DNA of 4,313 nt from IMG/VR virus record IMGVR_UViG_2671180637_000018; one strand, written 5' to 3'. Positions 1-4,313 of the stretch are shown in pieces; positions within the stretch are counted from its first letter, which is position 1, and every line of letters begins with the position of its first letter. Source of the DNA: a virus. Taxonomy: Duplodnaviria; Heunggongvirae; Uroviricota; Caudoviricetes. The notes under the pieces are model-generated. The model did not search any database. It was not told where the DNA came from and saw only the letters and a program-made list of their open reading frames with translations. A program made the translations under genes and the position numbers.

Positions 1-968
1 CCCAGCGTCACGTTATTCGTGTCATACCAGCTGGAGAACTTCTCCAGAATATTAATAAGCGGATTATCCTTCTGCCCCTGCGGCGCACCGGCGATATATT
101 CAAAGGCCTTTTCGGTATCAAGGTCACTTTCAATCGTCGCTGCATACATGGCTTTCACAATGGCCGACTGAAGCTGTGTTGCCTGCAGGGAATCCAGCAT
201 CTTCAGCCGTTCCATGACGCTGTAAAACTGATTAGCCCCACGGGTCTGCCCGTCCTCCACCGGCTCGAAAATATGCAGCATGGCCGGACGCCCGGTGGGT
301 AGTTCACGCGGGATCCGTTCCCATCGTCCACTCCCGGAGAACGGAAAATCATCCTCACAGATATGGTACGCAACGGCACGGCCATATCGATCGACCTCCA
401 CCCCGGCCCGCAGAAAACGGTTCCCCATACCGTGTCCTGGCGTGTCCACCCGTTTCGGACTCACGGCTTTAAAACGCGTACGGAATAACTGCGTGGTTTC
501 CGTATCCCAGACCGGCTGCACAAAGATTTCGCCGTTAAACGCATGAACGCCCACACCTTCACGGATAAATTCCGTGAACGTGCGTTTTCCTTCCACGTCG
601 ATCTCGCCAGACATCCCTTCGGCGTATTCCGACCAGGCCGCCTCCACCTCATCGACAAAGCTTTTTGCTGCGGTCTCCCGCATCCCCAGCCAGCGCCAGT
701 TCGGACGGTAGCTGATAAGAAACATATGCCCGACAATGTGATCCTTATGCAGGGCCACCGCATTGGCCGCTATTCCGTTATTGCGCACCAGATCATCTGC
801 CCGGGCATTCCCCAGACGCAACGCGGGCAGCAGGGCCGCATCGGCACTCTGCGCCGGTGGCAACCACTCCGCCATTTGCCCGCCAAATCCTGCACCGCCC
901 CCGTTGTAGCTGAGACTCTCACGAAGCGGAACGCCGTTCACATCAATCAGGACAGGCGTTCGTTTCAT
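1..968 (-). CDS. B: portal protein (lambda gpB-like), partial: N-terminal ~322 codons, C-terminal part beyond window start
   Basis: Minus-strand frame open from ATG at 968..966 to position 1 (not in the ORF track because it runs off the edge). Manual translation MKRTPVLIDVNGVPLRESLSYNGGGAGFGGQ...NARADDLVRNNG...HIFEPVEDGQTRGANQFYSVMERLKMLDSLQATQLQSAIVKAMYAATIESDLDT matches lambda gpB blocks as recalled. GAGG Shine-Dalgarno just upstream; ATG overlaps the gpW stop (ATGA), as at the lambda W/B junction. Confidence 0.85.
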   Translation of the reverse strand, partial: MKRTPVLIDVNGVPLRESLSYNGGGAGFGGQMAEWLPPAQSADAALLPALRLGNARADDLVRNNGIAANAVALHKDHIVGHMFLISYRPNWRWLGMRETAAKSFVDEVEAAWSEYAEGMSGEIDVEGKRTFTEFIREGVGVHAFNGEIFVQPVWDTETTQLFRTRFKAVSPKRVDTPGHGMGNRFLRAGVEVDRYGRAVAYHICEDDFPFSGSGRWERIPRELPTGRPAMLHIFEPVEDGQTRGANQFYSVMERLKMLDSLQATQLQSAIVKAMYAATIESDLDTEKAFEYIAGAPQGQKDNPLINILEKFSSWYDTNNVTL

Positions 969-1171
969 AACCTCACTCCCAGCGGACGACGGCGACGCCG
1001 GGTTGTCCCCAGTACCGACTCCGCATCATTGATCGCCCGGTTAAGCTCATCCAGAGAAGCCGCCGTATATTCAATTCTGCGACCATCTTTCTGGACAGAC
1101 ACCACCCGTTTACCGGTTAATAAATCAAGGCGCGCCTGACGCAGCGCCTGCAGTTCAGCGACTGTAACCAT
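965..1171 (-). CDS. W: head completion / head-tail joining protein (lambda gpW-like)
   Basis: 68-aa [71 protein letters not shown]; same length as lambda gpW with the conserved TGKRV.VQKDGRR core. Strong GGAGGA Shine-Dalgarno 4 nt upstream of the ATG; sits between terminase and portal as in lambda. Confidence 0.85.
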   Translation of the reverse strand: MVTVAELQALRQARLDLLTGKRVVSVQKDGRRIEYTAASLDELNRAINDAESVLGTTRRRRRPLGVRL

Positions 1172-3083
1172 TCACTCCTCCGGACAGCTTCGCTGCCAGT
1201 TCTTTCAGGGTTGGCCGGGTCGTCTCTTCTTCCCGGGATTTTGCCAGTACAGCCAGATCAAGCTGCCAGCGTTGCACGGACACACGTAATGCCGCGTAGG
1301 CATACACCAGGCAGTCCAGCGCTTCGTTACGCCGCTTTTTGTTATCCCACAGCAGACGCATCTTTCCTTTTTCCCACTTCTCCACCAGCTCTTCCGCCAC
1401 CAGTTGCTGCGCCTCTGTCTGCGAAAAAATCTCCGGATCATCAGGAAAACGGATGGCATACGACGTGGCTTCATCCGCAGGCGAGGGATCGGCTTTCATA
1501 CGGGCATAGAGAATTTCTTTTGCGGTGTCCGTTCCCACTTCACACAGATACACGCCCCGCTGATTGCGGGTTTTTGGCATGGTGATCACCGGCTTGCCAT
1601 AGACAGATGCGCCTTTTACCGGCAGCACCCGGAAAACACCGTGTTTTTTTGATCTCTGATAAACAATTTCACCATCGATCCCCCCGGTGTCCCAGCAGAC
1701 ACGGGAAATAGTCATTTCGGTGCCATCCGCATGGCGGTATTTTTTGTTGATCGCCGCATCCACACGTAACAGCGTCTCTTCCTCATCAGGACGCCCCATA
1801 ATGATGATTTTATCCACCAGAAAGGCTTCCTCTCCCGGAGCCCATCCCCAGACATACATCTCAAAACGGTTTCGCTGCGAGTCAATGCCCGCCGTCAGAT
1901 AAACCACCCGGGCAGGCACCGCCGCCGTGTAACGCACCACCTTATCCATCAGTACCTGGTGATCGAGTTTTTCGCCCACGGCCTCTTCCCAGGTCTCGCC
2001 CAGCGTGGTGTTCACAAAGGTTTTCAGGCCGTTGGGATCTTTCAGTGCATCCAGCCAGTCATAGACAATCTGTACCCAGGTGGTGAACGGACTGTACGCC
2101 GTCCAGATATGGAAAGTGATGGAGCGCGGCGGCGGAATTTCATTACCCGCAGCGCTGAAAAACGTCAGGCCGTCACGGGTCCACATGCCCGTGTTTTCAC
2201 AGATCCACCGCCCGTTGTTCTGGTCCAGTTCAGACTGATGGATCACGCAGCCATGATGTTCACAGAGGTAGAAAACGCTTTCGGGACTGTCCTTCTCCCA
2301 TTTAAGCCCAAAAGGCGTGGACTCATCGCCAAATTTCAGATACTGCGCCTCCCCACAGTGCGGGCAGGGCACATAAAAACGCATGAAATGCGCCGACTCG
2401 TTGGCCGCTTTTTCGATCTGGCAGGAGCCTTTGATTTTAGGAGTCGAGCCGCGAATGGATTTGGGCCATACAGAGCCCTCAATACGTTTATCCCCCAGCA
2501 GGGTTGGCGAACCCTCTTTTTCAACATCCGGTTCGAACGAGGAAAGCTCGTCATAACAGACCACATCCACGGATTTTTCACGGTAGTTTTTTGCTGCCGC
2601 TCCCCCCAGACACCAGAAACCCACACCGGAGGAAAAACGCTTCAGGGTGAGCGTATTATCGCGGTGTTTTCTTCCGAACCATGGAGCCAGCTCCAGCAAC
2701 GCAGGAACCTCCCTTATCGTTGGCTCAACATGAGATTTCATAAAATCTTCAGCAGCTGAGTCCGTGGGCTGAAAAAGAAGGCTGTTGCGTGATTTATGCT
2801 CAATAAAATAAGCCTCCACTCCCAGCAACATCTTTGTATAACCAACACGGGCAGATTTAATCAGGTTAACAGTGCGAATCAAATCGTTGCCCATACAGTT
2901 CATGATGCCAACCTGAAACGGCAGTGTTTCCCACCGCCCCGGGGTATAAGACGACTCTTTAGGAAGGTAATAATGTTTATTGGCCCACTGAACTGTCGTC
3001 AGTGGAACAGGAATAATGAGAGATAAAAGCCCTGTTGCTATCGCACCGGCTGCATTAGCTGCCTTCTGCGCGTCTGAAATCAT
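1155..3083 (-). CDS. A: terminase large subunit (lambda gpA-like)
   Basis: 656-aa track ORF (1155..3125) collinear with lambda gpA over its full length: [103 protein letters not shown]. Start placed at the second in-frame ATG (3083..3081, MISDAQK...), which aligns with the lambda gpA N-terminus, has a GGTGGA-like SD upstream and gives the lambda-like 29-nt overlap with the Nu1 3' end; the ATG at 3125 has no SD. Confidence 0.9.
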
Positions 3084-3603
3084 CGATCCACCCGCCCACG
3101 TTTTCACCGGCCTTAGCTGAAACATTGGAGGCTTTCGCGATTTCAGTTTTCACCACATCAAGGTGTGATGGTGAAATGTCCGGATATTTACGCTGTAATG
3201 TCAACGGCACACGCACAAGTATCCCCGAAATCTCCTGTGCCACACGTTGCAGAATGAAGGTAAACAGTTCAGTTTCCAGCACTACTCCGTCTTCACGGGC
3301 ATTTTTCAGTTCCTGCGCATCTGCCTGCGCTTTTGTGAGCCGGTAGCGTTCATAGTCAATGGTGCCGGGTTGTAAATCTGACTCCGCTGCCGCACGCAAA
3401 TCGTCCAGTTCTTTGCGGAGCTTTTCGTTTTCGATATCAGTTTCCCTCTGCGCATACCACTGAATTGCCATGGCAGTATCAAATACAGATTCAATGCCCT
3501 TACTACCTTTGGAGGCGCAAGGGAGTCCCTGAGACTGCCAGCGTTCAATCGTCCGCGGGTCCACGTTGAAAATTTCGGCAAGCCTCTTTTTATTAACCTT
3601 CAT
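3055..3603 (-). CDS. Nu1: terminase small subunit (lambda gpNu1-like), DNA-recognition subunit
   Basis: 182-aa [31 protein letters not shown]...[29 protein letters not shown] matches lambda Nu1 (MEVNKKQLADIF...RTIQNWQEQGMP...[28 protein letters not shown]) as recalled. Lies immediately downstream of the cos site and overlaps the gpA start, as in lambda. Confidence 0.9.
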
Positions 3604-3630
3604 GAAAACAACCCATTATCAAATACAAGG

Positions 3631-3642
3631 CCCGACATGAAA
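3631..3642 (-). promoter_or_regulatory. R1-like Nu1 binding site (cccgacatgaaa; minus-strand core CATGTCGG)
   Basis: Forms a perfect 11-bp inverted repeat with 3670..3680 (ccgacatgaaa / tttcatgtcgg); closest repeat to the Nu1 start (about 29 bp), the position of lambda R1. Confidence 0.6.
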
Positions 3643-3669
3643 ACGCCAGAAAAAGGCATTTTCGGACAC

Positions 3670-3680
3670 TTTCATGTCGG
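3670..3680 (+). promoter_or_regulatory. R2-like Nu1 binding site, inverted relative to R1 and R3 (tttcatgtcgg)
   Basis: Inverted partner of 3632..3642; orientation opposite to the other two copies, as for lambda R2. Confidence 0.6.
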
Positions 3681-3689
3681 ACCTTTACG

Positions 3690-3726
3690 GATGCAATATT
3701 AAAAAAAACAAAAAGTTATATTCGAG
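3690..3726. promoter_or_regulatory. A/T-tract region, candidate IHF (I1-like) bending site between R2 and R3
   Basis: gatgcaatattaaaaaaaacaaaaagttatattcg; positional equivalent of lambda I1 (AACTTAATGTTTTTATTTAAAATA) and similar on the minus strand (ATATAACTTTTTGTTTTTTTTAATATTGC). No exact IHF consensus verified. Confidence 0.4.
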
Positions 3727-3731
3727 AAGTA

Positions 3732-3739
3732 CCGACACG
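3732..3739 (-). promoter_or_regulatory. R3-like Nu1 binding site (ccgacacg; minus-strand CGTGTCGG)
   Basis: Third copy of the core with one mismatch, same orientation as R1, at the position corresponding to lambda R3. Confidence 0.45.
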
Positions 3740-3779
3740 ATTTTCCCTGAAAAATTTTCATAAATAGTGAAAAACCGCG

Positions 3780-3791
3780 AGGTCGCCGCCC
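3780..3791 (-). other. cosN: 12-bp cohesive-end site (minus strand 5'-GGGCGGCGACCT-3')
   Basis: Plus strand aggtcgccgccc at 3780..3791 is the exact reverse complement of the lambda cohesive end, with lambda-like flanks on both sides. Confidence 0.85.
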
Positions 3792-3835
3792 CGTAACGGT
3801 CTGGATCACCGGAAAGGACCCGCCAACGACTTTCG
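3792..3835 (-). other. cosQ-containing segment (right-end side of cos)
   Basis: Plus strand cgtaacggtctggatcaccggaaaggacccg closely resembles the reverse complement of the lambda right end (GGGTCCTTTCCGGTGATCCGACAGGTTACG, from memory). Exact cosQ bounds not determinable here. Confidence 0.55.
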
Positions 3836-3849
3836 CGTGCAGGCATTAA

Positions 3850-4003
3850 AAATTTTGCAGTTCCATGCCTAGTTGAAACCTCGATTTCTATAACATCCAA
3901 TTTTGTAAATTTAGATATAGCTCAACTTTTCCCAATGTTTTCAAGTGTATAAAAACAATTGGCGTTACGCCATAACACTATACTTAGGATAAGTAAAGAT
4001 TTT
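3850..4003 (+). promoter_or_regulatory. AT-rich leader likely carrying the promoter/operator for the plus-strand accessory genes
   Basis: Visibly AT-rich non-coding stretch upstream of a strong RBS. Several weak sigma70-like hexamers (TTGAAA 3873..3878, TTGTAA 3903..3908, TATAAA 3948..3953, TATACT 3979..3984), none with a convincing -35/-10 pairing at 16-18 bp, so the promoter is not pinpointed. Confidence 0.25.
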
Positions 4004-4009
4004 AAGGAG
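4004..4009 (+). promoter_or_regulatory. Shine-Dalgarno (AAGGAG) for ORF 4015..4266
   Basis: aaggag followed by a 5-nt spacer and ATG at 4015. Confidence 0.55.
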
Positions 4010-4014
4010 TTTTA

Positions 4015-4266
4015 ATGAGTCAACATCAATATTATCCACAGCTGAAATGGAAGCCTGCTGAATATGAATCTCTGATGCTTTTAGATCAAACTACGCTCTC
4101 TGGTTTTACTCCGATCATTACCATTCCAGACATAGACTGGGATTATGAAAACGAATGCTACAAGAAGAGTTTGAGTTCTTACTTATCTGACTTCGGTATT
4201 AACCTTGCGGCATCCTGGAAAGCCAATCTGATCTTACCCAGCAATAGTGGACACGCGGCTAAGTGA
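4015..4266 (+). CDS. hypothetical small protein (83 aa), first gene of AT-rich accessory cassette; family not recognised
   Basis: ORF MSQHQYYPQLKWKPAEYESLMLLDQTTLSGFTPIITIPDIDWDYENECYKK... with a strong SD at optimal spacing. AT-rich codon usage unlike the phage structural genes; plus strand, opposite to the late operon. Ends at TGA 4264..4266; the next ATG (4294) is in the same frame. Confidence 0.55.
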   Translation: MSQHQYYPQLKWKPAEYESLMLLDQTTLSGFTPIITIPDIDWDYENECYKKSLSSYLSDFGINLAASWKANLILPSNSGHAAK

Positions 4267-4281
4267 GTAAACTCTCAGTCA

Positions 4282-4287
4282 GAGGTG
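4282..4287 (+). promoter_or_regulatory. Shine-Dalgarno (GAGGTG) for downstream gene
   Basis: gaggtg 6 nt upstream of ATG at 4294. Confidence 0.4.
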
Positions 4288-4293
4288 ACTCAC

Positions 4294-4313
4294 ATGACAA
4301 AAACAGTATCAAC
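4294..4313 (+). CDS. hypothetical protein, 5' end only (MTKTVS...), continues beyond window
   Basis: ATG with a good SD 27 nt after the stop of the upstream ORF, same strand and same frame; only 6 codons visible. Confidence 0.35.

Follow-up and report, generated by a model that had tools for sequence, protein, structure and literature searches.

A 12-nt sequence, GGGCGGCGACCT, which is identical at 12/12 positions to the cohesive end of phage lambda, lies upstream of a terminase gene in the 4,313-bp stretch of viral DNA analysed in this work (referred to below as the window), and raises the question of whether a complete cos site is present there and which packaging specificity such a site would have. 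In sequence the window is identical to the complete contig CYEI01000065.1 of NCBI assembly GCA_001285545.2. A single exact copy of the 12-mer was found in it, at 3791..3780. This copy is 188 bp upstream of the gene for the terminase small subunit, and both of them are on the minus strand. The number of exact matches expected by chance in the window is about 0.0005-0.0006, and when one mismatch or less was allowed, a match was obtained in 7 of 200 shuffled sequences. From cosN, a stretch of 232 nt that reaches into gene 1 aligns with 100% identity to two independent phage 21 records, X02501 and OL657228, from their base 1 onward (BLAST, E = 3e-115). A chance match of the 12-mer is ruled out by this alignment together with the expectation of about 0.0005, and the exact lambda cohesive end reported by a first-pass annotation was confirmed.

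The packaging genes of the window

The genes that follow the 12-mer were assigned by Pfam profiles and by comparison with phage 21. Since all of the packaging genes are on the minus strand, the cos must be read on this strand. They are as follows.

3055..3603, minus strand: gene 1 (Nu1 homologue), terminase small subunit (TerS), 182 aa; Pfam Phage_Nu1, E = 3.4e-81
1155..3083, minus strand: gene 2 (A homologue), terminase large subunit, 642 aa; Pfam GpA_ATPase (5.5e-57) and GpA_nuclease (1e-71)
965..1171, minus strand: W homologue, head completion protein, 68 aa; Pfam gpW, 67/68 aa identical to phage 21
1..968, minus strand: portal gene (B homologue), N-terminal 322 codons only; frame open, 319/322 identical to the phage 21 portal

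The product of gene 1 is identical to phage 21 gp1 at 181 of 182 aa, the sole change being S162 for A, and is 52% identical to lambda Nu1. The product of gene 2 shares 628 of its 642 aa with phage 21 gp2 and has the same start; with this start, at 3083, gene 1 and gene 2 overlap by 29 nt. The frames of the packaging genes in the window are all open and 97-99% identical to those of phage 21, which is viable, and in nucleotide sequence the whole left arm is identical to phage 21 at 3708 of 3791 positions. In the portal fragment, Pfam Phage_portal_2 covers profile positions 2-258 of 354. The cos had been described as lying upstream of the Nu1 start, which agrees with the start codon of this Nu1-family gene at 3603 on the minus strand. 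It had also been described as accompanied by intact Nu1, A, W and B genes; this holds for Nu1, A and W, which are full length, but an intact B is unsupported, as the contig ends after 322 codons of the portal gene.

Two further observations concern these genes. The list of open reading frames gives a 656-aa gene 2 starting from an upstream ATG at 3125, and the annotation of phage 21, with its ribosome-binding site, points to 3083 and a product of 642 aa. The contig breaks at portal codon 322, and the median number of places with a sequence like that of the window is 4 per E. coli genome. The contig end inside the portal gene is probably an assembly break resulting from several related lambdoid prophages in one genome.

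Subsites of the cos and packaging specificity

The subsites of the cos were placed by mapping the curated phage 21 features of OL657228 and M81255 onto the window, followed by base-by-base comparison. The curated features of both records map one-to-one onto the window. From 5' to 3' on the minus strand, the order is cosQ, spacer, cosN, I2, R3, I1, R2, R1, I0 and the ATG of gene 1 (3603).

3815..3821, minus strand: cosQ, 7-bp packaging-termination signal GGGTCCT; shared unchanged by the window with phage 21, lambda and 5 other phages
3797..3814, minus strand: 18-bp spacer TTCCGGTGATCCAGACCG between cosQ and cosN; 12/18 identical to phage 21, 13/18 to lambda
3775..3796, minus strand: cosN, 22-bp nicking site TTACG-GGGCGGCGACCT-CGCGG; 22/22 identical to phage 21 and lambda
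3780..3791, minus strand: 12-nt cohesive-end sequence within cosN; equal to bases 1-12 of OL657228 and X02501, annotated there as cohesive ends
3748..3762, minus strand: I2, annotated IHF site beside cosN (M81255 196-210); 15/15 identical to phage 21, 13/15 to lambda
3742..3626, minus strand: cosB, complex R3-I1-R2-R1, placed by phage 21 feature mapping
3727..3742, minus strand: cosB R3, TerS binding box AATCGTGTCGGTACTT (OL657228 50-65); 16/16 identical to phage 21, 11/16 to lambda
3706..3720, minus strand: cosB I1, IHF bending site between R3 and R2 (M81255 238-252, OL657228 74-86)
3670..3685, plus strand: cosB R2, a TerS binding box that is inverted with respect to R3 and R1, with the plus-strand sequence TTTCATGTCGGACCTT (OL657228 107-122, 'opposite orientation'); 16/16 identical to phage 21
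3626..3642, minus strand: cosB R1, TerS binding box TTTCATGTCGGGCCTTG (OL657228 150-166); 17/17 identical to phage 21
3606..3620, minus strand: I0, annotated IHF-like site overlapping the ribosome-binding site of gene 1 at 3611-3614 (M81255 338-352, OL657228 178-181)

As cosQ (3815-3821), cosN (3775-3796) and cosB (3626-3742) are all inside the span 3604-3835, the earlier designation of this span as a complete cos is correct. Of the 22 positions in cosN, 10 show two-fold symmetry. Because position 3791 of the window corresponds to base 1 in both X02501 and OL657228, the phage 21 records, staggered nicks are predicted between 3792 and 3791 on the minus strand and between 3779 and 3780 on the plus strand, which would give virion ends with 12-nt 5' overhangs. 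The termini at 3780/3791 proposed before are correct by this correspondence. From the same sequence comparison, the cos would be expected to be cut in the source strain.

On the other side of cosN, cosQ maps onto the cosQ feature of OL657228 (42902-42908), the distance of 23 bp to the nick is likewise equal, and cosQ falls within the 'R4' box of M81255. The sole differences between the cos of the window and that of phage 21 are six substitutions in the 18-bp spacer. We compared this region in the window, phage 21, lambda, the isolated phages 4A7, PhiR5_1, IdasGreatGrand, 2H10 and phiSTEC1575-Stx2k, and one E. coli prophage relative. Throughout this set cosQ and the 22-bp cosN are invariant, and the spacer is constant in length at 18 bp and variable in sequence, with the greatest variation in PhiR5_1, an isolated phage. 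Since viable, isolated phages differ in the sequence of the spacer, the variant in the window is within natural variation. The exact spacer of the window is absent from the isolated phages in the collection, in which the nearest are 4A7, 1W and 3W, with 4 differences in 84 nt. An 11-nt inverted repeat (3680-3690 and 3791-3801, 91% complementary) that connects the flank of R2 with the left edge of cosN was considered as a structural element and rejected as probably due to chance; its pairing is not conserved, because the arm at cosN consists largely of variable spacer bases, which are not the same in phage 21 or in the nearest E. coli relative.

On the gene 1 side, window positions 3791..3604 align without gaps to bases 1-188 of phage 21 and are identical at 188/188. 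The core TGTCGG is common to R3, inverted R2 and R1, and R1 and R2, read in the same sense, are identical at 15 of 16 positions. This inverted pair was recovered independently by a repeat search, as 27-nt arms at 3627-3653 and 3659-3685. The plus-strand sequence of I1, AAACAAAAAGTTA, fits the consensus WATCAANNNNTTR with one mismatch, and at I0 the IHF consensus gave one match with 1 mismatch, at 3606-3618. The cohesive end, the 22-bp cosN, a cosQ at the conserved distance, a complex cosB and adjacent terminase genes are all found in the window, as in the lambda-like cos group (PMC4669245).

If the site had lambda specificity, the lambda Nu1/A terminase would recognise it and initiate packaging there. 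The identity of cosQ and of the 22-bp cosN to lambda, the mostly identical I2 and the equal R3-I1-R2-R1 layout are consistent with this reading. However, when lambda was compared at equal offsets, the identity fell from 7/7 in cosQ, 22/22 in cosN and 13/15 in I2 to 11/16 in R3, 6/16 in R2 and 5/17 in R1, while the R boxes are 100% identical to those of phage 21. In R3, both bp 56 and bp 59 are G in the window and in phage 21, whereas lambda has T (a T:A pair) and C; residues 20 and 24 of TerS are E and S in the window and in phage 21, and Q and E in lambda. These two base pairs and two residues were named as specificity determinants by Feiss et al. (PMC4669245), who attributed the discrimination to contacts between the recognition helix of TerS and the R site. 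According to the same work, lambda and 21 each prefer their own DNA to that of the other by a factor of more than 1000 in packaging (PMC4669245). Since all four determinants in the window are 21 alleles, the lambda terminase should not start packaging here. The low identity of the TerS to lambda Nu1 (52%, against 99% to phage 21 gp1) argues in the same direction, and we regard lambda specificity as very unlikely.

The spacing from cosN to R3 and the R2 and R1 boxes are likewise those of phage 21, and no sequence feature contradicting a phage 21-like cos was found in the window. We concluded, with a probability of about 0.9, that this cos belongs to a lambdoid E. coli prophage resembling phage 21 and is arranged as cosQ - cosN - cosB(21) - gene 1 on the minus strand. 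Its host of origin is presumably E. coli, to judge from the 98-100% identity of the window to E. coli prophages. The first-pass label of a lambda-type site is appropriate for the architecture, the class and the cohesive end but not for the specificity of initiation. The lambda-like flanks that had been noted on both sides extend on the gene 1 side only through I2, about 45 bp past cosN, and give way to phage 21-type sequence at the R boxes of cosB.

The literature on lambda and phage 21 suggests how such a cos would work. Dimers of gp1 would bind R3, R2 and R1, and IHF would bend the DNA at I1, which would bring R3 and the inverted R2 together and anchor the large subunit gp2 over cosN. The staggered nicks given above would then be made by gp2, leaving GGGCGGCGACCT as a 5' overhang on the left end, and the DNA would enter the prohead from the gene 1 side, toward lower window coordinates. 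At the next cos on the concatemer, cosQ and cosN would direct the terminal cut; termination at the cos of the window should be independent of the type of cosB.

The neighbourhood of the cos and the state of the prophage

Upstream of cosQ, the homology to phage 21 continues for about 8 bp and stops near position 3829. The GC content is 0.67 across cosQ-cosN, 0.32 in the intergenic region 3836-4014 and 0.54 in the terminase genes. It was also observed that the functional edge of the cos coincides with a recombination junction, seen as a sharp mosaic boundary in the region 3822-4014. Beyond this boundary are the following features.

4015-4228, plus strand: 'beta family protein' gene, N-terminal 71 codons, truncated by IS3, with a fusion ORF to 4266; Pfam Beta_protein
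4229-4313, plus strand: left end of IS3 (junction 4228/4229), with the terminal repeat TGATCTTACCC and then ATGACAAAAACAGTATCAAC, where orfA begins; 100% identity to IS3 copies that are annotated

The E. coli matches to the window all stop at 4228, and annotated IS3 copies 100% identical to the end of the window are present in 4286 of 5426 E. coli genomes. The contig probably ends in IS3 because the assembler could not resolve this repeat. The insertion interrupts the cargo gene at a distance of 438 bp from cosN, beyond all of the subsites of the cos. No exact match to the junction of the beta gene with IS3 was obtained in the species-representative genome collection. The full-length relative, a protein of 355 aa from E. 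coli STLEFF_47, is a match to the PADLOC model PD-Lambda-2_C (6e-32), and the convergent neighbour of its gene, encoding a 'sce7726 family protein', matches PADLOC 'cll' (3.8e-31). By these matches, the beta and sce7726 genes appear to form a candidate anti-phage defence pair, carried as cargo between the lysis genes and the cos and inactivated in the source strain. The right-end cargo of the window was found in none of the isolated phages in the collection.

The same cos is common in E. coli: a 257-nt cos that is 100% identical is present in 3 complete genomes, and a match with at least 80% coverage in 589 of 5426. E. coli Res13-Lact-EA06-22 is one strain with the identical cos. In complete E. 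coli genomes the cos lies in a full lambdoid prophage, flanked by the head and tail genes and, on the opposite side, by a lysis cassette together with two cargo genes. A metagenome contig, L012, has the same IS junction as the window and only 6 mismatches to it; it contains a complete 530-aa portal gene, followed by genes for the protease, decoration protein, capsid, FI, head-tail joining and tail.

The suggestion of the first-pass annotation that the element is packaging-competent was overstated, as it was based on a 4.3-kb contig in which B is cut and an IS3 copy is present 438 bp from cosN. Because of this insertion, the element as a whole may be decaying, and the cos could be an intact but silent relic in a defective, non-inducible prophage, cut only when a terminase of 21 specificity is supplied in trans. 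There are many defective lambdoid prophages in E. coli genomes. The IS3 copy in the neighbouring cargo gene shows ongoing IS activity in the element, the remaining prophage lies beyond the contig, and the absence of the cargo from the isolated phages is in line with a relic as well. On the contrary, the IS touches no subsite of the cos, the open packaging genes are close to those of a viable phage, the relatives in complete genomes look like full-length prophages, and in L012, which is nearly identical and shares the IS junction, the gene set from portal to tail tube is uninterrupted. A silent relic is the one live alternative, which we consider rather unlikely, and it concerns the activity of the cos and not its identity. 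It is also conceivable that the cos belongs to a satellite of the PICI (phage-inducible chromosomal island) or EcCI type, which would copy the cos of a helper phage for its own packaging; according to two papers, Gram-negative PICIs carry lambda-like cos sites (PMC6739421, PMC9026076). Such an island is without terminase and morphogenesis genes of its own, but in the window full terminase and W genes and then the portal gene come directly after the cos, and no satellite genes were found in the window. The relatives, moreover, have head, tail and lysis modules that are complete. A PICI-type cos, the probability of which is close to nil, was rejected on the grounds that the cos is directly followed by genes for terminase and morphogenesis.

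Significance and comparison with known systems

The feature itself is already known, being the experimentally characterised cos of phage 21 in a common E. coli prophage lineage, and its importance goes little beyond annotation. For this widespread lineage, the analysis fixes the type of packaging (cos, with 12-nt 5' overhangs), its direction and the predicted virion ends. The label of lambda specificity is also corrected to that of phage 21, and it is this label that determines by which helper phages or in vitro packaging extracts the cos could be used. The site is sharply delimited, with the homology to phage 21 stopping about 8 bp past cosQ and unrelated cargo following. A more speculative idea, which we think improbable, is that an intact cos of 21 specificity in a decaying prophage might let a phage of 21 specificity, whether co-resident or infecting, start packaging from the chromosome; separately, the variant spacer might alter the efficiency of termination. 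If so, such a phage would package from the cos toward lower coordinates and would move the prophage and possibly adjacent host DNA.

Among the known systems, phage 21 (X02501, M81255, OL657228) is closest to the window, with cosQ identical at 7/7, cosN at 22/22 and gp1 at 181/182 positions, and with gp2, W and the N-terminus of the portal at 98-99%. It differs in the six substitutions of the spacer and at the right end, where AT-rich cargo replaces the phage 21 genes. Lambda (NC_001416) has in common with the window cosQ, the 22-bp cosN, the 12-nt cohesive end, the distance between cosQ and cosN, the complex architecture of cosB with an inverted R2 and an IHF site that lies between R3 and R2, as well as the gene order Nu1-A-W-B. 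In contrast, the core of its R boxes is CGTTTCC instead of TGTCGG, the four determinants differ, and its Nu1 is only 52% identical to the TerS of the window; these differences between lambda and 21 define a separate, experimentally established packaging specificity (PMC4669245). N15 belongs to the lambda-like group with 12-nt 5' cohesive ends and a conserved cosQ. Unlike the window, it has a cohesive end that differs from that of lambda at bp 9 and 12, and a simple cos with a single critical R3 and a remote rR2 (PMC4669245), whereas the window has the 12-mer of lambda and 21 and a tripartite cosB.
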